Virus record (IMG/VR): IMGVR_UViG_2974555854_000001
Location: 16,799-80,798 of that record
Length of the DNA stretch: 64,000 nucleotides
Source: a virus
Taxonomy: Duplodnaviria > Caudoviricetes
Strand: one strand, 5' to 3'
The position numbers and the translations under genes are program-made. Shown here piece after piece: positions 18,101 through 57,785 of this stretch. The number at the start of each line of letters is the position of its first letter. Position 1 is the stretch's first letter. Below the pieces are notes generated by a model. It was not told the DNA's origin, did not search any database, and was given only the letters and a program-made list of their open reading frames with translations.

Positions 18101-18884
18101 GTTAACTGAAAAGACTGACCAGTTCGGAAATACAGTTCGTGATATTGAAGGTAATGTTCAGAAAGTCCTAGACGTTCAGAAAGCTATCCAGGATATTACA
18201 GCTGATATTTACAGCAACATCGGTAAAACAGTCGATGAAATGGTTACAGAAATTATCTCTTCTCAATTACCGTCTATCGGTGATTTGATGGGTAGCGATA
18301 CTGATTATGCATCTATTTCTTCAGGTATCAACGGCGCGATTGATTCAGTTAAGCCAACATGGGATGCAACATTATCTTATATGGCTCAATCAACTTCTCA
18401 AATGTTCAGTTCTCAAAATTGGCAAGCTGTTTCTCAAGGATGGATTCAAAGCATGGGTTCTACTATTCAATCTCTTCAACCGCTGTTTGAACAGATGATG
18501 GTAACGATGCCTGAAACGATGGGTAAAATGTTTGAAAACCTACCTTCACTTGTATCTACTGCAATGCAGAACATTACAACAGGTATTTTCAACACTGTTA
18601 TTCAAATCCTTAATCAAATGGTTGCAACGGTTAATCAGATCGTTCCTGCTGCTCAACGTATTCCTGCTTTTGAGTCAATGCAATACGCGACTCCAACGTA
18701 CACGCAAAATAACGACAATAGCTCTACAGAAGAGAAGAAAGTATACTCTGCTGATACTAATGTAGTTAGAAACGTAACGTATGTTGTACAAGCCGGTGTA
18801 GTTGTCGGAACGCAAAGTGAAATGAAAGAATTCGCTATGATGATTAAAGAATTGATTGATGAAGAAGAAGGGCGTGGTAATTAA
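12153..18884 (+). CDS. Tape measure protein with TP901-type core, lytic transglycosylase (SLT) and LysM domains
   Basis: 2243 aa, helical. SLT motifs RESGG...GLLQY at about 16.0-16.2 kb; LysM YTVQSGNTLSGIA at about 16.5 kb. Confidence 0.92.
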   Translation: MSDQIKISFEVDGEELKQITQAMNILDKFNKQAKTVVDGLNGMGTSMNGVGQSAKNQKNSIENLDAAMQSWSNKIKGQQKEMLQHSQTAKRMANTLNQLGSDAKVTADSAGRLSATFKDMNGNTVKMSGTVQQLNSQIGQMKTTITATSSAVTDSNKRLAAMNKEQQQLAKAMADGRSKFDNQSKAVSKLAQDYDKLHTGTRDLSRVLADNKGKFDVYNNALQKGSQIMKASIDAHGKFSQTLKNEQGQLTTISGYYDKNNQRITEYNRSIVKSADAMGRASKSANKYQAELMGLNKQAKSFGESLEHSATKMVEWGAAGAVVFGIQDAFRGLGATILEVDTQMTSLRRVLDDDVDMGKLFDGAVRNASILGIKLTDINEAMIEFGRQGFDDSEIEKLVKATGMMKNVADMDMGMASENMTAFLATFKRGVDDTMEYVDKLNEVDNKYAVSVDQLSNSIRKAGGTANAFGVSMDMVIGYTTAIGEATRESGQQIGNALKTIFSRVTTLGGAEKVLNNVGIAVKNQAGEARKAEDIFGDLHKVWGDLTNAERQNIALKVAGTHQVNRFLVMMQNYDQALKAAKTAENSWGSAQRENAKYMESLQAKLNNLWSSLQLAAVAAGDAGLTKAFKVLIETTNTLVQGVLGMGKAMGDFALLLPVIATGLGLFTFNLMKMKTNADLAVISLNTVGTATQQMALKMGASTTAATILGGAVGRITGGIKAMTLALATNPFAILLTAASAIAYFVGQSKQMDDQLKSMQGGFKDATKEFKAFQEAIANKTVDEYSVNKYKTQVDMLKDSTVLLNGVMKDGVKVYEQQNNSMVAMKAGTETMGMSQAQMKKHYAETTLARKALSEEEMTSLTTLGISIKKNTTLADVVNQVKNRQLDVSGAVKDAGDAMKKADKEAITPAIDAYGDLNDELDKNATLMENAIGFSNKYIKSIKEQIGVVELLSGQENLSKAQKDLLEMSTRNLTEAFGDQNDTTAEVIQKAKGQVKSMDELMELSGKLADGTATNEEKKRAQYLLTQQATYENTRVAQQEAEKVKKAKQQEAKEHNYTAGQAFQASIKTNKASSSISTTTVQKMGIVRGELNTTGTKHAEHAKSAQDSSKKVQLAGSEMFKASKRDFSKTRDQVDQTKKEYNKLEDEAKNIPKGIAKGIINAISDPEKAIAKLAESLVKKFKKALGIKSPSRVFMALGGHVIDGLVNGLDIGNLKALGQNAFKDFADGAFTTLDDIKMFLGGGGNFKNPGGGGAGWKSMIYAAAAQMGISVTPSEVNGIIAQINRESGGNQNIVQSSAVRDINTRNGNPARGLLQYIPQTFNAYKVPGHNNIYSGYDQLLAFFNNTTWRRDLPYGKRGWGPRGGTLFANGGITGSMYQQAQSNGNVPNGGFIDKPHFVDGGRGIAGEAGAEAIIPLSNSRRSRALDLYSQVGNILGVHAYANGGVTKKLNYTVQSGNTLSGIATLFKTSVDALKKINTSLAKTASSKALTAGMKVNVTGLIKDDDSFRSNSLLDPNRKKPGYVQAEDGSWVKKTMYNDPSYAASQKAGKPVAAKPPAKTYATKYGHVTAVEGDYSEMMSTIGYLQNNGIYNDSQALYAMKSQVRPQTRGTQDRRAYNDAQIDIISKMDNVKKASEWFRSANLFLSGDDWKKAYNQTMEMVKANAEAKAQAENDSKLANRQATLSREQTLGLATDSRTSSYLRDNIRAYSKTDEQKLAYNTAQMDVFKGMENVKTFSQWFDQAKLFGTAAEIKQIKENLTEIVKTNAIAGVTNATNAWFDTFDKRTPAVIKNLERTVNTIDSIKTAQEDAVLNSKIDSYIADRQAALGFDNRTDIEKKQSKMDSIKSQIDTAIQQNAELKFKTDGSDIDARLKQLQADKEKLNQGMKETSDYGKSKGLSDKDINDSLQRYKDQLAAIQEETTKLIQQKKDSVDMFNSNEAAIGSLTEEYKKLEREMEETQRKADVLQKIKDKVNSIFDWDTSSVLTEKTDQFGNTVRDIEGNVQKVLDVQKAIQDITADIYSNIGKTVDEMVTEIISSQLPSIGDLMGSDTDYASISSGINGAIDSVKPTWDATLSYMAQSTSQMFSSQNWQAVSQGWIQSMGSTIQSLQPLFEQMMVTMPETMGKMFENLPSLVSTAMQNITTGIFNTVIQILNQMVATVNQIVPAAQRIPAFESMQYATPTYTQNNDNSSTEEKKVYSADTNVVRNVTYVVQAGVVVGTQSEMKEFAMMIKELIDEEEGRGN

Positions 18885-19249
18885 TGGATCACTTTAGATT
18901 AGGAGTCAAAGGAGAGGGCTATGCCTTCTTCTTTCCTGATTCTTTTAACAAAGACACAAAAATAATCGGTGGACAAATCAGAAGATCAATTAGCGGTAAA
19001 GCGAAAAGGGATATTACCACCACTAAGAAAGTATTTTCAATGGGTTTCACTTATCTTTCAGCTGATGAAGTTGCTGCTATTTACGAACAATTCCTAAAGA
19101 ATATTGAGGATGGAAAGGATTTAACCTTTATTGATGATGAAGGGAATGAATTTATTGTAATGTTCAGTGGTGACAATTTTGGAATTAGTGATCGTCAAGC
19201 TGATGAAGACATTTATTGGTCAGGGACTATTAACTTGGAAGAGGTGTAA
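18884..19249 (+). CDS. Distal tail protein (Dit-like)
   Basis: 121 aa directly after the tape measure gene, ending TINLEEV. Confidence 0.65.
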   Translation: MDHFRLGVKGEGYAFFFPDSFNKDTKIIGGQIRRSISGKAKRDITTTKKVFSMGFTYLSADEVAAIYEQFLKNIEDGKDLTFIDDEGNEFIVMFSGDNFGISDRQADEDIYWSGTINLEEV

Positions 19250-19252
19250 AGG

Positions 19253-22200
19253 ATGGAAGGAAGATTAAAACAAACAATCAGACATCCTAAAATGGAGGTC
19301 TTAGTTGATTTTAATGGTTTGGGCCTGGATAGAATTAATGAGTGGGAGAATATCACTGATTACGTCCTAGATATTTCAGGTAGTAAAGAGAAAGCAACTG
19401 AATCCGTGGGCGGTGTTACTAGTGATATTGTTACATTTGCAACAGATAATAAAGGTAATGTATTTTCAAATACTAATCCTAAAAGCCCTTTTTACCAAAA
19501 GGTAAAGTCAAACACGAAGTTCGTATTAAAAACAGGATTCAAAGGTGAAGAATTAAAAATTTATGCTGCTGGTATCATTACTAAGTTCGCTCCTTCATGG
19601 AACGACAAAAAGTATAATGTTAGCGCTGAAGATTTCTTTTATTTGCTTAAAAATACTGATGCTCCTAAAACAGCTTATCAAGATATTTCGTTAGAAGAAC
19701 TAGTGAACGTCCTTTTGGATACAGCTGAAATTCCTTCACAAATTAATCGGATCATACCGAAAACGGAATTCAATTTTCAGTATTTTAAATTTGAAGAACC
19801 TGATTGTTTTAGTGCGTTGAAGAAGCTCATGGAGATTTCTGTCGGTCAGGCATACTTTGAGGGGCTTAATTTTGTATTTGAAACAAAGTTAGCATTGGAT
19901 TATGAATTAGATTTAACCGTGAAACACACGATTGAAGAAGATGACATTTTTACCTTTGACGAAACTGTTGAAGATTCGGATATCATCAATGCTGTTTCGA
20001 TTATCTCTAATCCTAAAACGATTTACCCTAAAGAATTAGTATTCCAAACACCTGAAAATATTGTACAAGTAAATGAAGAACCTGTTACATTTGGTACTGG
20101 AACTTCTTTTTATATCGACAATACTCACTTACCAATCATCAACAATGCTGAAAATCCTATTTCAGTTAAGAACTTGACTCAAGGCCGCACAATCAATATT
20201 AATAGCGTTGATATTAACACAGGTAAAATCACAATCCATCCTGAAAGTTTAGCTTATGTTGCTCAAGGTGACTTGTTAGTTGTTTCTTATTCTTATCAGC
20301 AGCTAGTTTTACTTCCAGGTCAAACAAGAACTTACTCACTTAGTTTGTCAGGTGAAGTACACGCTTTAACAGACGTTGATGTAGCTGTTTGGGATGCAAC
20401 AGGACAATTACCTAGAGAATACTCAACAACGCCAAATAAAGCAAATACAGTGTCGTTAAACCAATTCACTTTCAATCAAACTTCAGGTTTGGTTACTGTT
20501 GTTTTGAAAAATAATTACGCTGAAGGTATCACAATTTCTACGCTGCAATTACGTGGTAATCCAATTAAAAGTGCTAATCCTTTAGAGATTTATGTTCGTG
20601 ATCTTCCTTCTATTGACGAATACAAGAAGCAAGAATTACAAATTACGAATAACTATTTCACAAACACTAAATTAGCTCAAAAGATTGCACAATTCATTGT
20701 TGATAATCGTTCTATCACTAGAAAGAAAATCGGTGTGGATATGGATGGTTACACTGAATTAGAACTTAATGACATCGCTAAAGTAATCGAAAATGAAAGT
20801 GGAACTAACCACACATTCTATGCTGATCGTATTGATTACTCATTTTCTTCTGATGGTGGATGGTCTGCAAAAGTAACATTCACTCAAACAGAAACGGAAC
20901 AATGGGTTTATGAATCATTCAAAGGTGAATCATGGGAGAAAACAAATCCTGGAAATCCTATTGATGACTTCATTTTCGAAATCAACGCTAACATGGTTAA
21001 GAATGGTGGAGCTGAACTTCATACTGGAATTGCTGATTATGTAGATGCTGGTGCTGTTGGTTCTGCTCATTACGTTCCGGATTATTGGAGATTCACACGT
21101 TCAACAGGTAATGCTTCAGCTAGAATTCGTACCGGTGGAGAATTAGCTTTACATGCGGATCAATCTTTTGAAATTACAACATCAAATAGCGGTTCAGGTT
21201 ATTACGAACAAACATTAACAGGTGTTGTTCCTAGTAAGACTCATTCAGTATCGTTTATAGCACGTTTAGATGGGTGTAGCGGCGTTTTTATTGTTGAGCA
21301 ATACGAAGGTTCAACACTACTAAAAACTCTTTCGTATGACCTTCCTGAAGGCTTAAAAGAGTATGAATTCCAATTCGCTTCTGAATCTACAGCTGACCAA
21401 TTTATCATTAAGTTCAAAAAGAACGCTGGTACAAAAGGTTCTGAATCAATGATCTTTGACAAAGTAAAAGTTGAAGAAGCAGAAAAGGCTAGTCTTTATT
21501 TAGAAGCTAATGAAACTCAAACTGTTCAAGCTGGACAAAAGTATGATAATTCAGTTATAATCGGTAATAACTACGGTGTATCGGTTTATGATGCTAATAA
21601 TAATCAACGTGTTCGTATGGGCCAATATGCACCAGGAAAGTACGGTATGCGTATTGACAATGGAGCACTTGAAATTGTTAACGGATTATTATATGAGCAA
21701 CTAGCTACTGATGTAGGTAAGAAATTAAACATCAGTGAAAATAACGCTATCACAAGTTTAGCTACTAGTATGTCAGGGATTGACGGTGAATTAGGTACAA
21801 TTTCAGGTACAATCGAAAGCCATGCAAGCCTTATCCAGCAGAACTCTATAGCTATTTCACAAAGGGTTTTAACAACAACTTACACTACTGACAAAAACGG
21901 GATCTTACAACGTTTAAGTGATGCTGAAACTGCTATCGACCAAACCGCTGAAAACATTACACTATTAGCAACTCAAGAATCTTTTAATGAACTAGGTGAG
22001 ATCATAGAAGCTAATACAGCTGCGATAAATGTGAATGCTCAAGCTATTACTCAACGAGTTACAACATCAACATTCAATCAGGCTATTACTGACACAAAAA
22101 AGTATGCTGATGATTCTGCTACTGCTAAAGCTGGTACTGCTGAAGCAAATGCTAAAGCTGCTTCTGAAAAGAACATTTGGATCGGAACATCAGCACCTAC

Positions 22201-46257: not shown

Positions 46258-46480
46258 TAAGGTTTCCCCCCTTTGTTCGTTACTAAAAGTTACTTTATCA
46301 TTATAATACAGAATTGAAATAAAACAAGCCCCTTTATCACATTTGTATTAATTTTGAAATATTTCTCGATTTTTTGTAATGGTACGTGCAATATTTAGAT
46401 TATCGCCCATATATTAGGATTATGAAAAGGAGTTATTAACTACTTAACAACTTCTTCTCACCTACTTAATAAGAAATGGA

Positions 46481-46756
46481 GTGATTAGCTTGTCTAGCAA
46501 GTACATCCGAAAACCTGTAGTGTTCAATCGTGAATCAGCTTGGCATATGAACATCCTGGAACGTATTGAAGGTGAATCGAACAACTTTTCCGGTTATGTA
46601 ATGTCTATCCTTAAAGAACACTTTGACAGAAAGTTGCCACTTGAGCCAATTATTAAATCTGATCCAGTAAAAACAGAAAAAGAGCAACCGAAATCAGCTG
46701 CTCCTTCCTTCCAAAAACCTGTTAATAACACACCGCCAAAATTATTTGGAAAATGA
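46481..46756 (+). CDS. Putative ribbon-helix-helix-like DNA-binding protein with disordered tail
   Basis: RKPVVFN (strand) followed by NFSGYVMSILKEH (helix). Confidence 0.5.
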   Translation: MISLSSKYIRKPVVFNRESAWHMNILERIEGESNNFSGYVMSILKEHFDRKLPLEPIIKSDPVKTEKEQPKSAAPSFQKPVNNTPPKLFGK

Positions 46757-46854
46757 ATCGTGGTACTTGCAATTTTTGAATATGAGTAGCATAAACTGTT
46801 TGTGTAACTGAACTTGTGAATGGAGCAAACAGTTTAAATACCACTTCATAGTCA

Positions 46855-46920
46855 TTAAAACGGCCATAACCCCACTAATAAGCCTGTTAACCCAATGCTA
46901 ATTAAGATTGCTTCTACCAT
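46855..46920 (-). CDS. 21-aa hydrophobic micropeptide MVEAILISIGLTGLLVGLWPF, not in the ORF track
   Basis: RBS GGGAGTG and a consensus sigma-G promoter upstream. Confidence 0.6.
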   Translation of the reverse strand: MVEAILISIGLTGLLVGLWPF

Positions 46921-46952
46921 CTTTAAATCACTCCCTTAATTGTTGTTGAACT

Positions 46953-46982
46953 TAGTATGTACGCCTTGTTCAAATCCTATTC
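46953..46982 (-). promoter_or_regulatory. Sigma-G (forespore) consensus promoter GAATA-N18-CATACTA
   Basis: Matches the Bacillus sigma-G consensus GHATR-18-CATAHTA at every position. Confidence 0.65.
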
Positions 46983-47001
46983 ATGAAAAGGAGAATGACA
47001 A

Positions 47002-47106
47002 ATGTTTTCATTTTTGAGTGTCGCTGGTATGTGGATTGTGTGGCATACTGTTGGAATTCCTGCTTACATCAAATACATTAAAAAATTGGAGGAAAACAAA
47101 AAATGA
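47002..47106 (+). CDS. 34-aa single-TM peptide, not in the ORF track
   Basis: RBS AAGGAG; MFSFLSVAGMWIVWHTVGIPAYIKYIKKLEENKK; ATGA overlap with the next gene. Confidence 0.65.
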   Translation: MFSFLSVAGMWIVWHTVGIPAYIKYIKKLEENKK

Positions 47107-47573
47107 AAAAATATGAAGTGATCCCATTCAATCAGTTTATGACAGGTGAATATATGGAGCTTGAAGCTATTGTGAAAAACCAATATACAGAAAAAACAAT
47201 CAAGAAATTGCAAAAATTATCTGTATTCTTATGGTCAGTGAGTGCATCGTTTACAGCTAAAGCGGCTAGTGCTGCATCAACGGCGGCAACAGCTGGTAAT
47301 GCAAGTCAATCGTTCGGATTATGGTCACATACCACTGGATTATTTGGAGTATTTCAGGAAATGGCAATGGTTTTAGGAGCGCTTGCAATATTTGGTGGAC
47401 TAATCACAATGATCTTCAAAAAACGTGCTGGTCAGAAAATAATTTTAACAGCGGCAATTGCTATCGGTGGTTGTTTCCTTGTACCATCAGCGATTATGTT
47501 AGTAGCAATTATCGGTAATATGTTGAACGATACCTTATCACAAGCATTTTCAAGTATGACAATGGGGAGGTAG
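47103..47573 (+). CDS. Membrane protein with TrbC/VirB2 pilin-like topology
   Basis: Ala-rich AKAASAA processing-like stretch, then two hydrophobic helices split by a basic loop (FKKRAGQK). Confidence 0.55.
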   Translation: MKKYEVIPFNQFMTGEYMELEAIVKNQYTEKTIKKLQKLSVFLWSVSASFTAKAASAASTAATAGNASQSFGLWSHTTGLFGVFQEMAMVLGALAIFGGLITMIFKKRAGQKIILTAAIAIGGCFLVPSAIMLVAIIGNMLNDTLSQAFSSMTMGR

Positions 47574-47577
47574 TTAA

Positions 47578-47718
47578 ATGATTAAGTTTGTTATTGGAGC
47601 GTTCATTGGATTTTCTGTAGGTTTTGGTATGGCCCTATCGTACCTTGTTGAAGCTTCTGATTCATCTATGCTTATTAAAACAATTTCAATTGTGAAGGGA
47701 GTTCTTGAAACGTTATGA
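47578..47718 (+). CDS. 46-aa single-TM peptide, not in the ORF track
   Basis: RBS GGGAGG; MIKFVIGAFIGFSVGFGMALSYLVEASDSS...; ATGA overlap with the ATPase gene. Confidence 0.65.
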   Translation: MIKFVIGAFIGFSVGFGMALSYLVEASDSSMLIKTISIVKGVLETL

Positions 47719-50204
47719 AAATTACCTTAAATTCCAGGGAAAGTAAGCCATTAGATAATCCACAAATGGTTATGAAGGAGAAATTAACGTTGGGATCGCC
47801 TAAAAATGATCCCCTGCTTCTTCCTGTTGCTGTTGAACCTAAGTTACCAATAGTAAGACCTTCAACAGATGTAAACGTCAATGTGCGCCAATTTGAAAAG
47901 CCTGAAGCTAAACAGAAGAAAAAGATAACTTTACCATCCATTAATTTTCAACTAGCCGAACCGATGAACACAACTTTCTCTGTAAAGCCTGTTCCTACAA
48001 CGGATAATGAAAAGATAAACGTATTCATAGAAGCATTTGCAAATACTTACAAAGAATTTTTTAATCAAATCCGGAATTTTTCGTACGATGATAACGGTTT
48101 GTCTATACCTCAACAGGATAAAATCTTTATGGAAACAGTCATAGACAATAAAAAAGTACAGCAATTTATTACAACCAATGAGCACCAGGAAGAATATGTT
48201 GAACAGCAAATAGGTTTTACATGGTATAAGGCACAAGTTTTGAAGCAACATAAGGAAGTTATTGACTTTGATGTGAATAAATCGATCATTTATGAGTTCA
48301 ATTTGAAATTCACACCGGCCCTAACGTTAAAGCCACACGAAAAACTGTCTGATAAGATGCTCCGTGACTTCCTTGAGCTTAGTAAATTGTTCAAAGATGA
48401 CGAAAAAGCTCTGATCCAGTTCGGATTTCAACCATCAGAAAATGATTGGTATAAGGAAGGTAATGTTCAACTAAAGGACTTACCAACTAAAATCAAGAAG
48501 AGTGAGTACAGCACTAATAAAATGGGCTATTCAGCGTTTGATTGTTGCTTGAGACTCATTGTTCAAAGTGATGATAAAATACGCTTAGAAACAATCTCAC
48601 GCGGTTTAGTCAGTACGTTGAAACGTTTAGAGTACGACAATGAATTAATCGCCAAACAAGTCAAACCAAAAAGAATCAAATCATTCTACAAACGTAAAGT
48701 ATTGGGCCGCAAAATAGATGTTCCTTTATCATTCAGAAAGCGATTCATTTTAACTAACAAGGAAATAGCACACTTTATCGTACTTCCGAACAGATCATTG
48801 CAAAAGGATTATCACCTAGAAGTGGATGAAAAAGGTGTGACAACTGTTCATAAAAGCTTCTTATCCGGTAAAGGCTTGTGGTTAGGTGATGTAACGGTCA
48901 AAGGCAATAACAAACAATTCCGTATTCCAACTGAAGAACTGGATCAGCTTTGTGGAACATACGCATTTGTTGGTGAACCGCGTTCAGGTAAGGATATGAG
49001 TTGTTCACGTTTCATTATAGAATTAGCTAAAAAGGGCCACGGTGCAATTGTTCCTGATGCTATTGATGAAGCAGGGCGCGGTATGGCAGATATTATTAAA
49101 CAAAATGTACCGGCTAGTAGAATTGTTGACATTGATCTTGCAGACTTCAATAATCCTGTTTATTTCGGCCTAGATGACATTGTAGATGCAATAGGTATAA
49201 CAGGCATTGATGTTGTCGCAAACGATCTTGTAGGGATATTAGAGCTTGATAAGAATTATACTTCAAAGCAATTAGCACGATTAGTAGCTAAAGCGTGTAA
49301 ATGTAACCTATATGAAATGTTTAATTTCCTGAAGTCAGATAAATACGCACGTAAAATCCAGGAACGTGTATTAACTGAAGGTAATGAGCTTCTACATTTG
49401 CAATTAGAAATGGAATATTTTCAGACTACAATTCAAGCTAATGTAAGAGGGGCCGTTATTAATCGTCTTGATGAATTATTATCTATGTCTATCATGAAAA
49501 ACTTATTTGCAGCAAGGTCAAATCCTAAATTCAACCTTCAGAAGTTTATCGAACAGAATAAAATCGTTCTGATCCGCATGAAAAAAGATGGTGGATTAGG
49601 TGAACAAGGCGTTAAGATCATGATGAACCTAGTGCTGTTGAAAGTTAGTTGGTTAAAGAAAATCAAACAAACTGATAACGTGACGTTCCTTGTATTCAAT
49701 GAATTCCACCAATACGCTACTGAAACATTCAATGAAACGTTAAGCTCTTTAATCCTGGAAAGTCCGAAATATCGCTTGGGTATCAATCTAATATTCCACA
49801 CACCAAACAAGATTGACCGCAAATTGTATGAATGTATTCAGTCAGGTGCAAAAGGATTGTTCCTATTCAAAAACGGAAATCTAGGCATATTCAGGGATTT
49901 GTTCGAACGTATTAAGCCGCTAGATGTTGAAGCTTGTTTGAAAATTAAACGTCACGAGTCGATGTATTTGAGCAACGTTGAAGATGCTGAACCATTTTTC
50001 ATTAAGATGCATCCAACAGATAAATTTGACACGAGTTATAGGTCAGTCAAGGAAACAGAAAAATACGGAACAAAAGCTTCAATCGTTAATTCTGATATCT
50101 TCCAGGTTGAGAAGTGGATGTATGAACCTGAACCCGAACCTGAAGAAAAAGAAGAAAAAACTGAAGAAAAACCGAAAAAATCCAAAAAATCTAAGAAAAG
50201 TTGA
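47715..50204 (+). CDS. VirD4/TraG-like (HerA/FtsK superfamily) ATPase
   Basis: Walker A GEPRSGKD (about 48972), Walker B variant FLVFNEFH (about 49698), and ES.KYRLGINLIFH resembling the coupling-protein E.RKYG...L..Q motif. Confidence 0.72.
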   Translation: MKITLNSRESKPLDNPQMVMKEKLTLGSPKNDPLLLPVAVEPKLPIVRPSTDVNVNVRQFEKPEAKQKKKITLPSINFQLAEPMNTTFSVKPVPTTDNEKINVFIEAFANTYKEFFNQIRNFSYDDNGLSIPQQDKIFMETVIDNKKVQQFITTNEHQEEYVEQQIGFTWYKAQVLKQHKEVIDFDVNKSIIYEFNLKFTPALTLKPHEKLSDKMLRDFLELSKLFKDDEKALIQFGFQPSENDWYKEGNVQLKDLPTKIKKSEYSTNKMGYSAFDCCLRLIVQSDDKIRLETISRGLVSTLKRLEYDNELIAKQVKPKRIKSFYKRKVLGRKIDVPLSFRKRFILTNKEIAHFIVLPNRSLQKDYHLEVDEKGVTTVHKSFLSGKGLWLGDVTVKGNNKQFRIPTEELDQLCGTYAFVGEPRSGKDMSCSRFIIELAKKGHGAIVPDAIDEAGRGMADIIKQNVPASRIVDIDLADFNNPVYFGLDDIVDAIGITGIDVVANDLVGILELDKNYTSKQLARLVAKACKCNLYEMFNFLKSDKYARKIQERVLTEGNELLHLQLEMEYFQTTIQANVRGAVINRLDELLSMSIMKNLFAARSNPKFNLQKFIEQNKIVLIRMKKDGGLGEQGVKIMMNLVLLKVSWLKKIKQTDNVTFLVFNEFHQYATETFNETLSSLILESPKYRLGINLIFHTPNKIDRKLYECIQSGAKGLFLFKNGNLGIFRDLFERIKPLDVEACLKIKRHESMYLSNVEDAEPFFIKMHPTDKFDTSYRSVKETEKYGTKASIVNSDIFQVEKWMYEPEPEPEEKEEKTEEKPKKSKKSKKS

Positions 50205-50270
50205 CTTTAGTTTAACTTGAATTACCCTACTGTTTTAGTTGGTGTTGAACTTAAAAGGAGGTAGTTGAAC

Positions 50271-50417
50271 ATGAAAAAGCTACATTGGTGTGCGGTTTGT
50301 CACAAATTTGAAGAGGACAAAGAAAACAAAAAAGTCTACCCTTTCAATCCTGAAATCGAATATGTGATTACGCCTAGAATTTGCAATAAGTGTAAAAGAA
50401 AGAAGGTGAAGAAGTGA
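50271..50417 (+). CDS. 48-aa zinc-finger protein, not in the ORF track
   Basis: RBS AAGGAGG; CAVC...CNKC. Confidence 0.65.
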   Translation: MKKLHWCAVCHKFEEDKENKKVYPFNPEIEYVITPRICNKCKRKKVKK

Positions 50418-50485
50418 TTCATTTAATCGCTTTATCCTGGATCATTTATATAGCGAAAGAGCAATTAAAAAAGCCTTCCAAATAG
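50414..50485 (+). CDS. Possible 23-aa hydrophobic peptide
   Basis: GTGA overlap with the previous stop; (V/M)IHLIALSWIIYIAKEQLKKPSK; runs into a terminator. Confidence 0.35.
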   Translation: MIHLIALSWIIYIAKEQLKKPSK

Positions 50486-50498
50486 GAGGGCTTTGTTT

Positions 50499-50819
50499 TT
50501 ATTTTTTTCTATACTTTCCGTAATATTTAAGCCAACTGTTACAAGCGCTTTTAGTGTGAATATAATCAATGCGTTCATAACCACTTTCCGCTTCTTCGAT
50601 ATCCATATCCATTTTTTCTATCGTCCAATCAACTTCTTTAATTAAAAAATTAATATCAACATCGTTTAATTCTAAATTTTCGTCAGATAAAACGTTGTCT
50701 ATTTGTTGAACCGCTTCATAAGGTAACTTTTTGTAAGCTTTAACTACATCCACTTTACGTCCCATATCAAATTTCCTCCATATATCCTTCGACTTTATCA
50801 TGCAATTTACGGTTAGCAT
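50499..50819 (-). CDS. Hypothetical protein; probable start ATG at 50765
   Basis: RBS GGAGG before MGRKVDVV. Confidence 0.55.
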   Translation of the reverse strand: MLTVNCMIKSKDIWRKFDMGRKVDVVKAYKKLPYEAVQQIDNVLSDENLELNDVDINFLIKEVDWTIEKMDMDIEEAESGYERIDYIHTKSACNSWLKYYGKYRKK

Positions 50820-51666
50820 CTACATAGTTTTTATATGTCACTGAAGTATCGCTATGGCCCAATAGTTCAGAAACATAACTGATTTCTAATCCTTTTTCTA
50901 GTAAATTTGTAGCTTGAGAAGCACGGAAAATGTGAGAAGAAAACTTTTCAACACCTGTTCGGCTACCGATCTTATCAAGGATTTGATTTACTCTACGTGT
51001 AGAAATTTGCTTCTTCGTACGTTCTGATTCAATAACGTATTCAGAATCCCATTTACGGCTATCTTTCATTTCCATAAGTTTATCATACGTTTTGCCTGTA
51101 ATCATTGGAAAGCGTTCTTTGTCACCTTTACCAATTACACGAATTACGATACGTCCGAAATCATTATCAATGTCAGACCATTTTAAATTTACCAGCTCAT
51201 TCACACGTAATGCTGCATCAAACAGAACGCGGATAATACACTCTTCCATTAAGTTATCACAAGCAAATGTAAGGTTCTTGATTTCAGACGTTTTAAGAGT
51301 CTTTACAGGCTTTTTAAGCTTTTTAGGTAAATAACTACTCAATTCCTTTTTATCAATGAATGGAGCTTTTTTCATACGTCCAGTACGGTTTAAGAATGAA
51401 AGGAATTCATTTGTGCTAACAGCTTTGCGTTCAATTGTAGCTGCTGATGTGTATTTGTTTTTAAGATGATCGATAAAATTAAGAAAGTCTTCCTTTTCGA
51501 AGTTGTTGATGTTCATATCCACATCATTTTGTTCCATATAAGTAACGAACTGATTAACGTCAGATACGTAATTGATAACTGTATTAGCTGATTTGTTGCG
51601 GCTTAACTCCTTTTCAAAAAGATCGATGTAGTGATTTAACGTTTTAACATTGTTGTATTTTGCCAT
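50767..51666 (-). CDS. Tyrosine recombinase (XerC/XerD-like)
   Basis: SAM-like N-terminal domain; catalytic residues in ALRVNEL, GKGDKER, HIFR, LGH and TYKNY all present. Confidence 0.9.
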   Translation of the reverse strand: MAKYNNVKTLNHYIDLFEKELSRNKSANTVINYVSDVNQFVTYMEQNDVDMNINNFEKEDFLNFIDHLKNKYTSAATIERKAVSTNEFLSFLNRTGRMKKAPFIDKKELSSYLPKKLKKPVKTLKTSEIKNLTFACDNLMEECIIRVLFDAALRVNELVNLKWSDIDNDFGRIVIRVIGKGDKERFPMITGKTYDKLMEMKDSRKWDSEYVIESERTKKQISTRRVNQILDKIGSRTGVEKFSSHIFRASQATNLLEKGLEISYVSELLGHSDTSVTYKNYVDANRKLHDKVEGYMEEI

Positions 51667-51697
51667 TTTAATTTCCCCTTTCGGTTATCTTACTCTT

Positions 51698-51740
51698 AGT
51701 ATATATGAGGAATACGAAGAAGTCAACTATTTCTTATAAG
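51698..51740 (-). promoter_or_regulatory. Sigma-A promoter TTGACT-17-TATACT for the recombinase, with CTTATAAGAAATA just upstream of -35
   Basis: Read directly from the sequence. Confidence 0.72.
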
Positions 51741-51788
51741 TATTTTTGGTTATAATAAAAAAAAGAAGGGTTTCCCCTTCTATAATCA

Positions 51789-52742
51789 TTACTCTTCTTC
51801 AGGGTAATAGGACATACAACCACAACCACCGATATCATCCATATCAATGTTCTTCATGTTCTTAGCTTCATATTCTTCACGAAGCTGCTTTAAAGTTAGC
51901 TGGTACTTTACTTTATTCTTCTGTTTACGAAGGATAGATGTATCTTTACCTAAAAATTGTCTCATTTCCTCTTCTTTTTCTTCATGATAGCGGTACAGTT
52001 CAGGGAATTCTTTTAACAGGTTAATGAAGTGGCCCTGACCTCCACGTACACAAAATCCACCACAATTATTATGAGCAAAACCCTTACCGTATAGGCGCGG
52101 CGATGCAATTCCTAAAGCATTTAGATCAGCTAACATTTCTTCTTTAACTACGAATGGTTCTTCACACATTGGGAATTCTACCTTATAAGGCAACCAATTC
52201 TTTTTAGGTGCTTCTTTACGATGATCTTCAGTCCAATCAATTCCTAAATAAAGAACAACTTCATCCGGATCATACTGATTGATAATCTTAGCAGCAGCAT
52301 CTTGTTTCAATTTGTGTGAACATTGAGCAATACGACTATTACCTATCCAACGTTCTTTCTTGAAAACCTCCCAGGGCGTACGTCCATCCATTGACCAATT
52401 CATTTGAGGAATACGTTTATTTACTAATTCTGATAATTCACGAAGGTATTGTTTTCTTTCTTCCATTAGCTCGTGAGATACATCAGGAATGTTTTTGGTT
52501 AAGTCTACAAGATCACTCACATGCACGTTAAATAGCTCTCCTGCTGTTTCAATCATAAACCGGTATAAATCCTTATCTTCGATTAAAGTATCCGTAAACA
52601 TCAAAATAACGTCTTCTACACCATGCTTTTCAATTACACGTTTAGCGGTGGCCCAACTACCTACTCCACCTGAATAAAAAATAATGTGTTTCATATGAAT
52701 AACCTCCTGGATTTTTGAATATACTACTATTAATACAGACAA
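51789..52742 (-). CDS. PAPS-reductase-family PP-loop protein; probable start ATG at 52694
   Basis: FYSGGVGS PP-loop; conserved Cys in IAQCSH, HNNCGGFC and GGCGC. Confidence 0.7.
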   Translation of the reverse strand: MSVLIVVYSKIQEVIHMKHIIFYSGGVGSWATAKRVIEKHGVEDVILMFTDTLIEDKDLYRFMIETAGELFNVHVSDLVDLTKNIPDVSHELMEERKQYLRELSELVNKRIPQMNWSMDGRTPWEVFKKERWIGNSRIAQCSHKLKQDAAAKIINQYDPDEVVLYLGIDWTEDHRKEAPKKNWLPYKVEFPMCEEPFVVKEEMLADLNALGIASPRLYGKGFAHNNCGGFCVRGGQGHFINLLKEFPELYRYHEEKEEEMRQFLGKDTSILRKQKNKVKYQLTLKQLREEYEAKNMKNIDMDDIGGCGCMSYYPEEE

Positions 52743-52794
52743 GTTGTTGAAGATTATATGTAAAAAGCACCGGAATAACCGATGCTCATTTATA

Positions 52795-54657
52795 TTAAAG
52801 ATACAGTTTTAATGTACCTTGCAGCTTTTCAATCTTATCGTGAAGCATTTTAACTTCTTCCTGGTGAACACGATCATTTGCACTAACTTTATCTAAGAAG
52901 TCATCGAAGTTCTTATTCATTTCTTTGTGTTTTCTAGCTAGAATATCATTAGCTTCTTCGAATGCATCAAGTGTTTTCTGCTTGTTATCATTGCATTCAT
53001 AAGCTTCTTCCAGCTCTTTTTTGTATGAAAGAACAGCTACTTCTAACTCATTAGCACGTTTTAATTCTTCTTCATACAAACGTTTATATTCAACAGCTTC
53101 ATTGTAAGCACGTTGACCTTCTTCTTCAAGATGATCGTAACGTTCAGATAGTTGGTGTTTTTCCTTCAACACACGCTCATATGATTCATTACGTTGCTGG
53201 TAATCAGCTTCAAGACTATCGTTTTTTCGATGAAGACATACAACTTCTTCTTTTAATCGAACGTTTTCTTCAGATAAATCACGACAAGCAGCAGAAACAT
53301 CAGCGTTGACACGTTTAGAATCAGTGAGATTTTGAGCTAATTTATCACGCTCAATACGAACAGCTTCAAGTTGTTCTTGTACATATTTAACGTTGCTATC
53401 TTTATGTTTGATTGCGGTTTCAAGCTGATTGATAACTGATTCTTTTTCAAACACCTTGTTTTCCCACGTTTCGTTTAAAGTAGCAACAGCTTCTTCGTAA
53501 GAAATGTGTTTCTGATCCGCTTGTTTCTGAAGACGTTTAATCTCCTGGTCACGAGAAGATACTTGCTGTTTGTAACTTTCAACTGTTTGCTCAAGATCAG
53601 TGATAACCTTGTCCATTTTACTTACTTGTGAAGCTGAAGTAGCCGGTTTAATAGCAGTAGCCATCATTTTCTTTTTATCCCCCTGTTTTTTAACACCTTT
53701 AGCACCATTTGAAATCTTAGCCGCCATTGCAGCATCAGTTAAACCATTTTCTTTCTTCCAACCATAATAAACAGCGTTATTAAGTTTGAAATGACGTTGA
53801 ATTTTACCGTTTGAATTACCTTCATTACGCATTTTGTGATAAATTTCAACAGTTAATCCATTCAAAGGTTTTTTTGCGTTAAACATAACAACAACACTCT
53901 CCTGTTTGATTTTTTTAGGCTTGGACTTTCTAACTTGTGGTGCTCTCTCTTTCACTACGTTGTCGAATTGGCCCTGACCTTTTAGATATTTTTCTAACAG
54001 CGGCTTAACTTGATTTTTGATAATTCGAGAAACCTGAACTTGTGAAATCCCTAATGCTTTTCCTATTTCAGATTGTGTTCTATTATCCATCACAAGTTTA
54101 ACCACTATTGCAGCACGTTCATCCAACGTTTCCAGGAACTCATTTACGAAAGTGTGTGAGTAATCGTCATGTTCGCCAATCATATCCGATATTGTTAGCG
54201 GATCACCGTCATTTTCGTAAACGGTTTGTTCTATGGATGAAGGAGTTCGTACCTTCATAAAATATAATAACTCGTCTACTTCCGATAAGTCAAGTTCTAA
54301 TTTCTCTGCAATTTCTTCACGACTCATACCGTCACATTCATTGTATCGAAATTTGCTATGCAATTCCTTTAAACGTCTAGGAGTTTTTATTGTTCCATCA
54401 TCACGGATAAAACGTTGTATCTCACCTATCATCATAGGAACAGCATATGTTGACCATTTAACACCATAACTATCATCAAAACGATCAAACGCCTTCATGT
54501 AACCCATAGCTGCAAGTTGGAACAGATCATTAGGATCATAACCACGATTGTTAAAGCGCTGAACAACAGACCATATAAGGCGTAGATTACGATGCACATG
54601 TTCTTCTTTATTTTCCAAAACACCTTCAATCATATTTTCCTGCTTAGACAAAATCAT
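52795..54657 (-). CDS. sigF: SigF-like sigma factor fused to an HTH-like segment and a long coiled coil
   Basis: LIWSVVQRF.NRGY.P.DLFQ, STYAVPM.IGEIQRFIRDDGT, TVYENDGDP and TQSE...LGISQVQVSR match Bacillus SigF; about 370 extra residues follow. Confidence 0.88.
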   Translation of the reverse strand: MILSKQENMIEGVLENKEEHVHRNLRLIWSVVQRFNNRGYDPNDLFQLAAMGYMKAFDRFDDSYGVKWSTYAVPMMIGEIQRFIRDDGTIKTPRRLKELHSKFRYNECDGMSREEIAEKLELDLSEVDELLYFMKVRTPSSIEQTVYENDGDPLTISDMIGEHDDYSHTFVNEFLETLDERAAIVVKLVMDNRTQSEIGKALGISQVQVSRIIKNQVKPLLEKYLKGQGQFDNVVKERAPQVRKSKPKKIKQESVVVMFNAKKPLNGLTVEIYHKMRNEGNSNGKIQRHFKLNNAVYYGWKKENGLTDAAMAAKISNGAKGVKKQGDKKKMMATAIKPATSASQVSKMDKVITDLEQTVESYKQQVSSRDQEIKRLQKQADQKHISYEEAVATLNETWENKVFEKESVINQLETAIKHKDSNVKYVQEQLEAVRIERDKLAQNLTDSKRVNADVSAACRDLSEENVRLKEEVVCLHRKNDSLEADYQQRNESYERVLKEKHQLSERYDHLEEEGQRAYNEAVEYKRLYEEELKRANELEVAVLSYKKELEEAYECNDNKQKTLDAFEEANDILARKHKEMNKNFDDFLDKVSANDRVHQEEVKMLHDKIEKLQGTLKLYL

Positions 54658-54679
54658 TCCCCCTTTTCATCGGTACGGC

Positions 54680-55069
54680 CTATTCACTATCCATTTCATT
54701 AACTAACGGTTTAGCTACGAATTTAACCACACCATCAGAAAAATCCGCTTTTACTTCCAGGGACATAATGTGTTTCGTATCATATGAATCAAGCTTGTAC
54801 AAAGAAACTGTACGGTTAAATGCATGGTCAGGATTATCAGCTGTTTTAAGTATGTAACCCTTACGTTGAAATTCTTCAGCTGATCCGCAACGACTAACTA
54901 ACATTAATTGCTGGTAAACATTTTCGATAACATCATTGTACTTCTGCATGATAAGCTCAAACGTTTTTGTGTAGTTAACCTTATCTGATGTAGCAGCATC
55001 AGCGTTAGCAGCTTTAACACGCTTGTAATTGACTGTTTCACCAAACGTATACTGTTTATTCTCTTCCAT
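54680..55069 (-). CDS. Hypothetical protein
   Basis: 129 aa with RBS. Confidence 0.6.
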   Translation of the reverse strand: MEENKQYTFGETVNYKRVKAANADAATSDKVNYTKTFELIMQKYNDVIENVYQQLMLVSRCGSAEEFQRKGYILKTADNPDHAFNRTVSLYKLDSYDTKHIMSLEVKADFSDGVVKFVAKPLVNEMDSE

Positions 55070-55072
55070 AAC

Positions 55073-55312
55073 CTATAACCCCCTAATAATTTTAAATGCA
55101 TTTAAGATATATTCCTGGTGTAATTGTTGTTCTAAGGTGTACCATCCTCTAACCTTTTGGCAAGTTGTACCTTTATTTAACCAAACATTTCCTAATTCGT
55201 CAACAATAATTTTATGGCCCAATGAATCAGCGTACATTTCACAGCTCTCTTTTACACGCTTTAAATCCTGATCTAACCCTGCTGTCAATTTACTTCCAAA
55301 CATGATTTCCAC
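55073..55312 (-). CDS. Hypothetical protein; probable start ATG at 55303
   Basis: 79 aa, RBS GAGGTG. Confidence 0.55.
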   Translation of the reverse strand: MEIMFGSKLTAGLDQDLKRVKESCEMYADSLGHKIIVDELGNVWLNKGTTCQKVRGWYTLEQQLHQEYILNAFKIIRGL

Positions 55313-55357
55313 CTCTTTTTAAAATTTGTTGTATCAATCCTGAATAACAAGGGTACA

Positions 55358-55600
55358 GTTAAATAATAATTAAATAATATATATAATTAAATATAATTTA
55401 TAATTAAATATAATTAACATTTCTATTTATATTATAATTAAAATATAATTAACAGTTCAAGTAAATATAGTTCTTTATTAACAATTAAATATAATTAATA
55501 ATTATTTATAACTAATAATTAAAACACTAATAACAATTAGCCTTAACCAACAAGAATCTTTATTTAATAATTAACAATAACTAATAACAAATATAAAAAC
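55358..55600. repeat. Extremely AT-rich region with TATAATTAA repeats (candidate replication origin/unwinding element)
   Basis: TATAATTAA at 55382, 55399, 55433, 55444 and 55490; almost no G; lies at a transcription divergence point. Confidence 0.55.
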
Positions 55601-55601
55601 A

Positions 55602-56444
55602 TTGTCGATCAAAAATTGTGCGAAAGAAATTGTTGCAGCTTCTTCCAAGATCAGTTATAATACAAGCATAACGATATGGGAGGTTGAGAAAGTGAACGAA
55701 TTGAAAATTGTTTACACTCAAAAAGTTTTAGGTAATGTATTCAGTATTTATGGTGATGTGGACAATCCTTTATTTTTAGCGAAAGATGTTGCTGAATGGA
55801 TTGAACACAGCGCTACACATATGATGTTAAAAACTGTTGATGATGACGAAAAGCTGACCGAAACATTGTTTCTATCAGGTCAAAAACGTGAAGCTTGGTT
55901 TCTAACTGAAGATGGTTTATATGAAGTTTTAATGCAATCACGAAAACCAATTGCAAAACAATTCAAACGCAAAGTAAAAGAGATTTTGAAATCAGTTAGA
56001 CGTACCGGTGCTTATATGACCGAAAACACATTAGAGCAAGCGATTAACAATCCTGATTTCACAATTGGACTTCTAACCAAATTGAAAGAAGAACAAGAAC
56101 GTGCAAAGCTCCTGGAATATGAAAAGCACCTGAAAGAAATGTTGATCCAGGAACAAACACCTAAAGTTGAATCATATGACCGCTACATAGATAGCGAAGG
56201 GACTTACTGCATCCGTGACGTTGGAAAAATTTTAGGTTATGGTCAGAAAGAATTCTTCGCGTTACTTCGTGAGAATGAAATTTTATACAAACATCGGAAT
56301 GTTCCAAAACAGCAATTTGTAGATAGTGGGTATTTCGAACTAAAGACAGGTTCAGGTGTCCACTCTGAAAAGACATACATTCAATCTCGTATCACTACTA
56401 AAGGATTGGATTGGTTATCGAAGAAATTCAATAAGACAGCATAA
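55602..56444 (+). CDS. Bro-N/antirepressor (KilAC/ANT) protein; probable start GTG at 55692
   Basis: PLFLAKDVA...LTEDGLYEVLMQSRKPIAKQFK Bro-N domain; C-terminal FF.LLRE...P.QQF.DSGYF...ITTKG ANT domain. Confidence 0.88.
   Translation: MSIKNCAKEIVAASSKISYNTSITIWEVEKVNELKIVYTQKVLGNVFSIYGDVDNPLFLAKDVAEWIEHSATHMMLKTVDDDEKLTETLFLSGQKREAWFLTEDGLYEVLMQSRKPIAKQFKRKVKEILKSVRRTGAYMTENTLEQAINNPDFTIGLLTKLKEEQERAKLLEYEKHLKEMLIQEQTPKVESYDRYIDSEGTYCIRDVGKILGYGQKEFFALLRENEILYKHRNVPKQQFVDSGYFELKTGSGVHSEKTYIQSRITTKGLDWLSKKFNKTA
55633..55661 (+). promoter_or_regulatory. Sigma-A-like promoter TTGCAG-17-TATAAT
   Basis: Lies upstream of the Bro gene RBS. Confidence 0.6.
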
Positions 56445-56529
56445 CAATTAATCAACTTCCTGAAATTGGTCATTTACTAGGTTAATCCCCTGGTGATATG
56501 ATTGGTTTCGAAAGGGAGTTGATTTTTTT

Positions 56530-57132
56530 ATGAAGAAAATTGTTACAGCATCAGCACTAGCAGCAGCTTTATTAATTCCAACTACGAGTATGGCGGCTAC
56601 TAGTTATACAGTTCAACCGAATGATACAATGTGGAAGATCGCGGCGAAGAATAAAGTAGGGGTACAAGAATTAATCAACGCTAACTCTTCGCTGAAGAAT
56701 CCAAATTTAATCTATGTGGGCCAAAAATTAACGATCCCCACACAAGATAATTCATATGAACAACAAGTGATCCAGCTTGTTAATAAAGAAAGAGCTAAAG
56801 CCGGTCTTAAACCATTAAAGGAAAATTGGGAATTGTCACGAGTAGCTGAATTCAAATCAGCAGATATGCGCGACAAGAAATATTTCGATCACAATAGTCC
56901 TACTTACGGATCACCTTTTACAATGATTAAGAATTTCGGTATCTCATATAAAACAGCAGGGGAAAATATTGCCGCTGGTCAGAAAACACCTGAAGAAGTG
57001 ATGAAGTCGTGGATGAATTCACCAGGACACCGCGCTAATATCCTTAATGCCGGTTATACTCAAATTGGTGTAGGTTATGTTGCCGGTGGTAGTTATTCAA
57101 CTTATTGGACACAACAATTTATTTCACAATAA
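56530..57132 (+). CDS. Secreted LysM-CAP(SCP) protein, SafA-N/YkwD-like
   Basis: Signal peptide, LysM YTVQPNDTMWKIA...NPNLIYVGQKLTIP, CAP motifs YFDHNSPTYGSPF, GENIA and WMNSPGHRANIL. Confidence 0.92.
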   Translation: MKKIVTASALAAALLIPTTSMAATSYTVQPNDTMWKIAAKNKVGVQELINANSSLKNPNLIYVGQKLTIPTQDNSYEQQVIQLVNKERAKAGLKPLKENWELSRVAEFKSADMRDKKYFDHNSPTYGSPFTMIKNFGISYKTAGENIAAGQKTPEEVMKSWMNSPGHRANILNAGYTQIGVGYVAGGSYSTYWTQQFISQ

Positions 57133-57135
57133 GCC

Positions 57136-57233
57136 TTGACTTTTCATCGGATGGGCCATATACTATTAACTACGGATAATTATTTCGTTACTTGTCTCTC
57201 GACTACAAGCCTGGAAAACTTGTGGTCTTTTTT
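57136..57233 (+). ncRNA. Putative small RNA (~60 nt) bounded by its own sigma-A promoter and terminator
   Basis: TTGACT-17-TATACT (57136-57164), then about 60 nt with no ATG and no RBS-led ORF, ending in the GACTACAAG/CTTGTGGTC stem plus T6. Confidence 0.55.
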
Positions 57234-57282
57234 ATGTATATAGGGGTATATTCCGTTTTGGCTGATCCAACAAAAACCAACA

Positions 57283-57412
57283 TCGATTTATTTCACACTC
57301 TCAACATTTGAGGTTGCAGCAGATGGGGGCCGTTTCCGATCAGTGACTTCACTTAAAAATCAAAGTCGATTTAATTCACAGTGTCAGTTTTCGAACCCTG
57401 GAAGTGGGGGCC
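57283..57412. repeat. Imperfect tandem duplication (period about 82 bp)
   Basis: TCGATTTAwTTCACAsTsTCA at 57283 and 57366, each followed by TGGGGGCC. Confidence 0.6.
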
Positions 57413-57785
57413 ATAACATTTTACAGCTTTTTTCAAAAATCCAGGATCGAAATAAATCAAAGTCTCAAAAATTCACTTTTCAAAACTTTTTATCAAAAAC
57501 AGGTTTCACTTCCTGAAAAAGTGTCAATGATATAAGTGTAACAACAATTAACTCACTCTCTCAATGATTCTGTTAGGCTCGAAGTAGAAATGTGACTGAA
57601 ATTTAATCCCCCTTAAATTGATGGTACGCTTTTTACAGGTGATATGCTAAAGAAAACACCTTTATTGATATGATTTATAATCAGATGTTTTTTTACTCCT
57701 CCCAGTTTTTTTCATCTGATAATATAATTCATGTTAGTATAGGTGTTTTCTTTTTTTATAAACAAAAACAAGGAGTGGATCAGGA

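Follow-up and report, generated by a model that had tools for sequence, protein, structure and literature searches.

Do the phages of spore-forming bacteria only block the dormancy of their hosts, or do they exploit it too? The question is posed by an 11-kb region of the siphophage Stills (genus Slashvirus, host Bacillus megaterium). The DNA analysed here, referred to as the window, comprises bases 16799–80798 (64 kb) of the 80,798-bp Stills genome, which has direct terminal repeats; the region runs from position 46481 to 57233 of the window. A first-pass annotation of the sequence had listed in it a SigG promoter with a micropeptide, a DNA-translocase-like cassette, a Xer-type recombinase, a SigF fusion, an antirepressor, a secreted SafA/YkwD-like LysM-CAP protein and a small RNA, with a second sigma factor at 30.8 kb. 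All of these features exist, at or near the places where they had been put. They had been read together as one integrated programme for travelling in the host spore. We favour, with slightly better than even confidence, a different reading: the region is a mosaic accessory arm, in which a SigF-derived sigma factor disturbs or prevents sporulation and reads a tiny regulon of phage genes; the evidence does not tie the parts into an integrated spore-riding programme.

Results and discussion

The region belongs to a Slashvirus, of which it forms the right-hand accessory (non-structural) arm, and has been annotated before. The genome announcement of Stills already names an integrase-like gene, an Ant-like protein, a CAP protein that is secreted and LysM/YkwD-like, and two sigma factors. 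Nearly all of the parts have been described, whether in genome announcements, in the re-annotation of SPP1 or in studies of the sporulation genes and sporulation sigma factors of phages. The published Slashvirus announcements make no mention of the SigF/G-type promoters, the 21-amino-acid (21-aa) peptide, the architecture of the sigma tail or the short RNA. Staley, Slash and Stahl belong to the same genus as Stills, and their DNA matches the 10.7-kb region at 85–86% nucleotide identity across 62–76% of its length with the gene order kept. As these phages form a single genus at 75–85% identity, the shared synteny does not count as independent evidence.

Outside the genus the modules differ in their distribution. 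The small proteins and the ATPase of the cassette are common to Slashvirus, the phage MaeS, the Basilisk-like phages and two more distant viral contigs, and the ATPase is also found in SPP1-like and many other Bacillus phages. The recombinase is common to Slashvirus, MaeS and the Basilisk-like phages. Only Slashvirus (four or five members) has the sigma fusion, orf129 and the LysM-CAP gene; the CAP gene is absent from all five related whole records. Co-occurrence of the genes across relatives, which the first-pass annotation had itself proposed as a check, therefore fails outside Slashvirus. The region is most likely a mosaic of at least four modules with separate evolutionary histories and separate jobs.

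The description of the region as a cluster of sporulation-linked functions holds for only three of its eight items, namely the sigma factor, the LysM-YkwD protein and the SigG-type promoter. Neither homology nor motif links the ATPase, the recombinase, the antirepressor or the RNA to sporulation. Sporulation look-alikes are also not limited to the region, as RsfA/GerR-like and SleB-like genes lie at the other end of the genome. What stands is that some of the genes come from the sporulation toolkit of the host and that SigF/G-type promoters are conserved before two phage genes; this does not extend to the whole 11 kb.

The SigF fusion was found as a 620-aa SigF-derived sigma factor with a C-terminal extension. 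It scores 189 bits against the SigF equivalog model TIGR02885 (cut-off 321), and is thus SigF-derived and not an equivalog. The named best cellular matches are all SigF, at about 50% identity, and include that of the host species. Regions 2.3–2.4 and the recognition helix of region 4.2 hardly differ from SigF; the protein lacks the SigF N-terminus, and its region 3 has diverged and carries a deletion. The AlphaFold2 (AF2) model is of low confidence (predicted local distance difference test score, pLDDT, 57) and was used for secondary structure only. In it the three-helix domain is the best predicted and some 280 residues form a continuous helix. The tail sequence was found in Slashvirus proteins only.

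Among phages, the sigma part comes closest to Moonbeam gp165 (514 aa) and Eldridge gp169 (506 aa), the latter being 44% identical across the sigma domains. In B. subtilis, Eldridge gp169 (ELDg169) mimics the sigF/sigG transcriptional response and cuts the spore yield by 99% (Schwartz et al. 2022, PMC9429907); that study makes no mention of the tail. Eldridge infects the same host species as Stills and its sigma factor too has a long C-terminal extension. Eldridge is, however, a myophage (Herelleviridae), and the tail of its sigma factor is unrelated in sequence to the three-helix and coiled-coil tail of the Stills protein. We note that long C-terminal tails with no relation to one another recur among phage SigF-like sigma factors (protein lengths: Eldridge 506 aa, Moonbeam 514 aa, MaeS 480 aa, Slashvirus 598–620 aa).

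Two further sigma-family genes lie elsewhere in the genome. The second sigma factor at 30.8 kb is a 233-aa member of the SigB/F/G family, 32% identical to the 620-aa protein. A third, very divergent sigma-70/ECF-like gene (1628–2347 of locus L019, that is 7627–8346 of the genome) sits beside dUTPase and RsfA/GerR-like genes; the same trio (sigma-like, dUTPase, RsfA/GerR-like) has been reported as Basilisk gp20–22.

The SigG promoter and its micropeptide gene were confirmed, with an exact consensus, a ribosome-binding site and a 21-aa open reading frame (ORF) that starts 32 bases past the promoter, behind GGGAGTG. Among four Slashviruses the −35 and −10 elements are invariant, the spacer is variable and the ORF shows synonymous changes only. 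The peptide is also conserved in the Basilisk-like phages and in MaeS. In MaeS a related site, GTATA-N18-CATATTA, is placed at an equal distance from the peptide ATG although the intergenic sequence cannot be aligned to that of Stills. The Basilisk-like phages have a TATAAT-type promoter at this position and no detectable sigma region 2 in their whole records; MaeS and Slashvirus each encode a SigF-like sigma factor. At about 2e-5 chance matches per position, a SigG-type site is unlikely to have arisen by chance twice independently in the right 60-nt window. On these motifs, it is suggested that the peptide gene is driven by the phage SigF-like sigma factor or by host SigF/G.

A second site points the same way. 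The genome has a single exact SigF-type site (genome position 8878), 38 nt upstream of the RsfA/GerR-like gene; this site is kept in four Slashviruses with changes in the spacer only. No homologue of the RsfA/GerR-like protein was detectable in the phage collection beyond Slashvirus, hence this promoter is not comparable across lineages. The new point in our analysis is the pairing of phage SigF-like sigma factors with a SigG-type promoter on a conserved micropeptide gene, which suggests that the phage sigma factor reads a small regulon.

The leftward operon would be expressed in the infected vegetative cell, where its sigma factor would load onto host core RNA polymerase; for this operon, as for the recombinase, the LysM-CAP gene and the RNA, the best promoter-like sites upstream are of the sigma-A type. 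The structural genes are preceded by a separate, enriched motif (GAGA-N19-TATTAAT), so that late transcription would not proceed via SigF/G-type sites. The phage sigma factor would then read SigF/G-type promoters, both those of a tiny phage regulon (the 21-aa peptide and the RsfA/GerR-like gene) and, unavoidably, those of the host forespore regulon. By analogy with Eldridge gp169, sporulation would be derailed rather than spore carriage promoted.

Several points weigh against this reading. The analogy with Eldridge gp169 spans 44% identity and an assay in B. subtilis, which is not the natural host. Host SigF/SigG in the forespore would be an equally good reader of the promoters, and both phage SigF-family sigma factors are also candidates. 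Exact SigG-type matches in the genome are at the level of chance (3 observed, 3.7 expected from shuffled sequence), counts with loose SigF and SigG consensus sequences are not enriched genome-wide, and only two exact SigF/G-type promoters were identified in 81 kb. As the counts equal chance, the case for a phage regulon rests on position and on conservation in two or three lineages. The reading gives no role to the coiled-coil tail, orf129 or orf79. ATPases of the kind found in the cassette occur in 99 phage records, all with spore-forming Bacillales hosts except for the doubtful record of MaeS. Finally, we establish the identities, folds and distributions of the genes as well as the promoter motifs and how they are conserved, and from these all activities, timing and host effects are inferred.

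The 829-aa ATPase of the cassette (46481–50204) gave no Pfam or NCBIfam match at E ≤ 0.01–0.1, either for the protein itself or for 15 homologues, and no PDB match by sequence, whether singly or as a 15-member profile. A fold search alone succeeded. With the AF2 model (pLDDT 75) Foldseek returned as its best match full-length TrwK/VirB4 (E 4e-14, about 860 aligned columns, TM-score only about 0.3), followed by HerA, TrwB, the VirB4 C-domain and DndH-C. The ATPase has an intact Walker A motif. Homology (phrog_5156, E 3.5e-264) and gene order place the protein among the SPP1 gp32-like phage ATPases; it is 25% identical to the product of SPP1 gene 32 over residues 259–785 (about 530 residues, tblastn E 2e-42). 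In the alignment of this family the most conserved motif is FNEF(H)QY, with an invariant Asn-Glu in place of the usual Walker B Asp-Glu.

The label of DNA-translocase-like cassette is a fair one in that an ATPase of VirB4/HerA/TrwB fold is encoded together with transmembrane proteins. Membership of the FtsK/SpoIIIE family does not follow; there is no PF01580 match, no transmembrane segment is evident in the ATPase and the fold likeness is at the superfamily level only. The comparison with VirB4/TrwK has in its favour the fold match and the small transmembrane genes just upstream, but there is no match to a sequence model. The cassette is also of a known kind that is present in the strictly lytic phage SPP1. 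SPP1 gp32 is non-essential, resembles TrwB, VirB4 and FtsK by HHpred and has been suggested to make up a translocon together with gp31.1 and gp31.2, which are membrane proteins (Godinho et al. 2018, PMC6316719). In both phages a large ATPase (829 aa in Stills, 836 aa in SPP1) follows small membrane-protein genes, although gp31.1 and gp31.2 have no detectable sequence similarity to the 156-aa membrane protein of Stills. Unlike SPP1, Stills has the antisense 21-aa peptide gene with its SigG-type promoter within the cassette. In what would be an old, membrane-associated cassette, the ATPase, presumably of hexameric type, and its small transmembrane partners would move DNA or protein at the membrane. 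As the SPP1 homologue is dispensable for lytic growth, the cassette is not a sporulation device as such.

The 156-aa membrane protein is kept at 41–53% identity in the Basilisk-like phages, MaeS, the viral record IMGVR_UViG_2936413993_000002 and a further contig (L015). The gene for the 91-aa protein adjoins the cassette in Slashvirus, MaeS and the Basilisk-like phages alike.

The Xer-type recombinase, which has a sigma-A-like promoter of its own, would be a further module and would resolve multimers or integrate the genome. To the right of the control region, a separate, rightward unit would comprise the antirepressor-type protein, a secreted, host-like wall protein of the LysM-YkwD kind and a short RNA. 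The antirepressor was found with Bro-N (PF02498, 63 bits) and KilAC (PF03374, 99 bits) domains. Its N-domain is Bro-N in Stills and Rha in Staley, Slash and Stahl. A TTG start at 55602 was rejected for the likelier GTG at 55692, behind GGGAGG. The LysM-CAP protein passes the YkwD cut-off (TIGR02909, 205.2 bits against 171), and its LysM domain falls 0.25 bit short of the SafA-type cut-off (TIGR02899, 67.6 bits against 67.85). The same two-domain architecture with a signal peptide is common in Bacillota, in the LysM-YkwD/SafA-N proteins of endospore formers (TIGR02909, TIGR02899). The Stills protein differs from these bacterial counterparts in being phage-borne and in having an extended −10 sigma-A promoter and no evident sporulation promoter; its upstream region is 96% conserved. 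Within the phage collection, other full-length LysM-CAP homologues occur only in two Butyrivibrio phages, which are unrelated. The small RNA stands as a candidate, which begins directly past the LysM-CAP stop and has a conserved promoter, a hairpin and a U-run. Its fold z-score is −2.2 and the stem carries compensatory changes in Staley and Slash; no Rfam match was found.

Alternative explanations

The three sigma-family genes could serve only a temporal cascade of the phage, as in SPO1. The likeness to SigF would then be ancestry, and the other sporulation homologues would be wall enzymes or binders re-used for lysis or entry. According to the literature SleB-type hydrolases may indeed serve as lysins, and the SigG-type promoter on a phage gene tracks the presence of a phage SigF-like sigma factor. 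A cascade would also fit the distinct motif GAGA-N19-TATTAAT, which (allowing one mismatch) occurs 11 times against 3.3 expected and is enriched before structural genes; as a motif it is likely to be a late-promoter type read by a phage sigma factor. Its best copies, all on the plus strand in the structural-gene half, are at 2846, 6320, 6601, 9984 and 25175. On the other side, the two exact SigF/G-type sites found in 81 kb fall short of what a middle or late class would need. The recognition helices, moreover, are almost identical to those of host SigF, such that host forespore promoters cannot escape, as with Eldridge gp169. We consider a cascade on its own to be unlikely.

A bolder version of the regulon can also be framed. 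The phages would possess a forespore-type regulon of their own (the 21-aa peptide and the RsfA/GerR-like gene), read by the tailed sigma factor, tethered or oligomerised via its coiled coil, in order to sense or act in the sporulating cell, either for spore carriage or for the abortion of sporulation. If true, the switch from a TATAAT to a SigG-type promoter, which tracks the phage SigF-like sigma factor across three lineages, would be the evolutionary footprint of this regulon. We give this proposal little weight.

A third explanation takes the recombinase and the antirepressor as marks of a temperate or plasmid-prophage life style, and the region as a lysogeny and maintenance module. The recombinase is indeed of Xer type, with a SAM-like N-domain and a catalytic domain, and is intact; the catalytic R, K, HxxR, H and Y all align to the archaeal XerA-type (XerC-like) structure PDB 4a8e. 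Its best model matches are XerA, XerC and XerD, all below cut-off (168, 144 and 129 bits against 220, 335 and 330). The Stills announcement suggests temperance, Basilisk has an actin-like partition protein near its recombinase, and IMGVR_UViG_2936413993_000002, a distant carrier of the cassette (ATPase 39% identical), is classed by IMG/VR as a provirus and has a different, 341-aa integrase. Some cassette carriers are thus probably temperate.

Stills itself has, of such a module, the antirepressor-type protein and the recombinase, next to which no attachment or dif-like inverted repeat was seen. ParA (CbiA/ParA), ParB_N and the actin-like partition protein (ALP_N) were not detectable in its genome, nor was an HTH_3 repressor beyond matches to sigma region 4, other repressor families not having been scanned. 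No related prophage was found in representative bacterial genomes in two pattern-based scans, whose need for near-exact peptide words limits their sensitivity. A temperate module is therefore improbable.

The first-pass programme, in which the phage persists as an episome in the sporulating cell, is monomerised by the recombinase, enters the forespore by way of the ATPase cassette and there tunes transcription and the coat or cortex, has a precedent in that spore entrapment of lytic Bacillus phages is known. In phi29, the one case that is well understood, it depends on Spo0A boxes at the early promoters and the origin, together with several Spo0J/parS sites (PMC2731898). Both phi29 and Stills are lytic phages of Bacillus with a biology that may be linked to sporulation of the host; phi29 differs from Stills in lacking a sigma factor, recombinase or ATPase cassette of this kind, and Stills in turn lacks enriched Spo0A boxes or parS sites. 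Spo0A boxes (TGTCGAA) number 4 in Stills against 9.6 expected. The only one in the region (53961) is within the sigma coding sequence and not at a promoter. No parS-like site has fewer than two mismatches and none of the matches is inside the region.

To its credit, this programme would account for the SigF-derived sigma factor, the YkwD/SafA-like protein and the SigG- and SigF-type promoters, for the RsfA/GerR-like and SleB-like genes elsewhere in the genome, for the position of the SigG-type promoter inside the ATPase cassette, and for the restriction of gp32-like ATPases to phages of spore-forming Bacillales. It is nevertheless very improbable, given that the modules do not co-occur beyond one genus, that the cassette is shared with SPP1, where gp32 is non-essential, that neither a partition protein nor an HTH_3 repressor nor the hallmarks of phi29 were found, that the promoters are mainly of the sigma-A type, that the tested sigma homologue suppresses sporulation, and that Slashviruses were isolated and propagated on asporogenic hosts (genome announcements).

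Other features of the region

The coordinates of all features are collected in Table 1. The divergent control region between the sigma and antirepressor operons has predicted promoters at 55460..55431 on the minus strand and at 55478 and 55543 on the plus strand. A repeat-family search showed it to be crowded with AATTAAATATAATTA-like words, in direct as well as inverted copies; the stretch may serve as an operator array, an origin or a DNA-unwinding element. A repeated word, GGTACNTGCAAT, at 46381 and 46762 was rejected as a phage promoter; there are two exact copies only, counts with two mismatches are at chance level and both copies are ordinary sigma-A-like promoters. A brute-force search of the genome for over-represented spaced dyads returned coding GAA-rich noise only.

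The gene for a PAPS-reductase-like protein sits between the sigma terminator and the recombinase promoter in Stills; Staley, Slash and Stahl lack it. Of the loci compared, only MaeS has a counterpart, 67% identical and at a different place, and the insertion has the look of a mobile accessory gene. "Microcystis phage MaeS" (MT362618.1) further shares with the Slash- and Basilisk-like phages the ATPase cassette (61% aa identity), the recombinase (53%), a SleB-type gene, the 21-aa peptide and a SigF-like sigma factor. Its assignment to a cyanobacterial host looks doubtful.

Of the smaller ORFs, the 48-aa CxxC protein has no Pfam match, and a short gene annotated in Slash at the place of the 88-aa ORF has no sequence similarity to it. 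Beyond the candidate RNA, three 32-nt repeats with 81–83 bp spacing (AAAAAYCAA..TCGATTTAWTTCAC...) occupy 57272–57467, a G5-containing segment following the first two. The non-coding gap of 650 bp around them is conserved in part in Staley, Slash and Stahl, and the repeats may represent iterons or genes for small RNAs. An Rfam scan of 45–60 kb gave no credible family. Directly past the RNA hairpin Stahl has an extra segment of some 580 bp (about 18720–19300 of its locus L010), which we read as a putative HNH-endonuclease-like gene. Slash has an annotated HNH endonuclease gene inserted beside the ATPase gene. These HNH-type insertions indicate that the intergenic sites concerned are insertion hot spots.

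Table 1 Features of the Stills accessory arm and related loci (window positions unless another reference is given)
Feature	Position	Strand	Basis and remarks
91-aa protein, first gene of cassette	46481..46756	+	phrog_21197, E 7e-59; annotated start in relatives about 10 nt further in; possibly ribbon-helix-helix
21-aa hydrophobic micropeptide (MVEAILISIGLTGLLVGLWPF) plus stop	46920..46855	-	Translation; ribosome-binding site GGGAGTG
SigG-consensus promoter	46982..46953	-	GAATA-N18-CATACTA, exact regex match
34-aa transmembrane micropeptide	47002..47106	+	Translation; annotated in Staley and Slash; stop overlaps start codon of 156-aa gene
156-aa membrane protein	47103..47573	+	phrog_13699 "membrane protein"
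46-aa transmembrane peptide	47578..47718	+	ORF list; kept in relatives
829-aa P-loop ATPase, FtsK/HerA/VirB4/TrwB fold	47715..50204	+	phrog_5156, Foldseek; SPP1 gp32 homologue
48-aa small ORF, CxxC...CxxC	50271..50417	+	Sequence reading; followed by terminator-like hairpin 50470-50494
88-aa protein	50499..50765	-	Start adjoins stop of recombinase gene; translation apparently coupled
Xer-type tyrosine recombinase, 299 aa	50767..51666	-	PF00589, PF02899; own sigma-A-like promoter 51726..51698
PAPS-reductase-like protein	51789..52742	-	phrog_424, E 7e-51; insertion
620-aa sigma factor	52795..54657	-	SigF-derived regions 2-4 (aa 1-225), basic linker, three-helix helix-turn-helix-like domain (aa ~263-305), ~280-aa coiled coil
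129-aa protein (orf129)	54680..55069	-	phrog_21879; upstream of sigma in same operon; Slashvirus only
79-aa protein (orf79), first gene of leftward operon	55073..55312	-	ORF list; Slashvirus-conserved, 42% identical in MaeS
Divergent control region, 250 bp	55350..55600		A+T-rich (about 90%); sigma-A-like promoters both ways
Antirepressor-type protein (Bro-N + KilAC/ANT)	55692..56444	+	PF02498, PF03374, phrog_130; GTG start behind GGGAGG
Secreted LysM + CAP (YkwD-family) protein	56530..57132	+	PF01476, PF00188; signal peptide; extended -10 sigma-A-type promoter 56473-56502
Candidate RNA, ~60 nt	57136..57233	+	Promoter TTGACT-17-TATACT, conserved leader, hairpin 57201-57227, U-run
Second sigma factor (SigB/F/G family), 233 aa	30755..31456	-	TIGR02980, 113 bits; adjoins thymidylate synthase
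RsfA/GerR-like gene	L019 2943-3563 = genome 8942-9562 (8.9 kb)		Outside region, left genome end
SleB-like LysM protein gene	genome 10.9-11.6 kb		Outside region
Eldridge sigma gene	L006 1435-2955		Relative of 620-aa sigma
Moonbeam sigma gene	L020 1411-2955		Relative of 620-aa sigma
MaeS sigma gene	L025 1336-2778		Relative of 620-aa sigma

Conclusions

The evidence is that of a mosaic of mostly described parts rather than of a programme. Slash-like phages nevertheless bring together an unusually broad set of sporulation look-alikes in one 81-kb genome, comprising two SigF-family sigma factors, RsfA/GerR-like, SleB-like and YkwD/SafA-like proteins, and SigF- and SigG-type promoters. The novelty that can be tested is the pairing of the phage sigma factors with the SigG-type promoter of the micropeptide gene. 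With their tractable host, Slash-like phages would be a good system in which to ask whether the phages of spore formers only block dormancy or exploit it as well.

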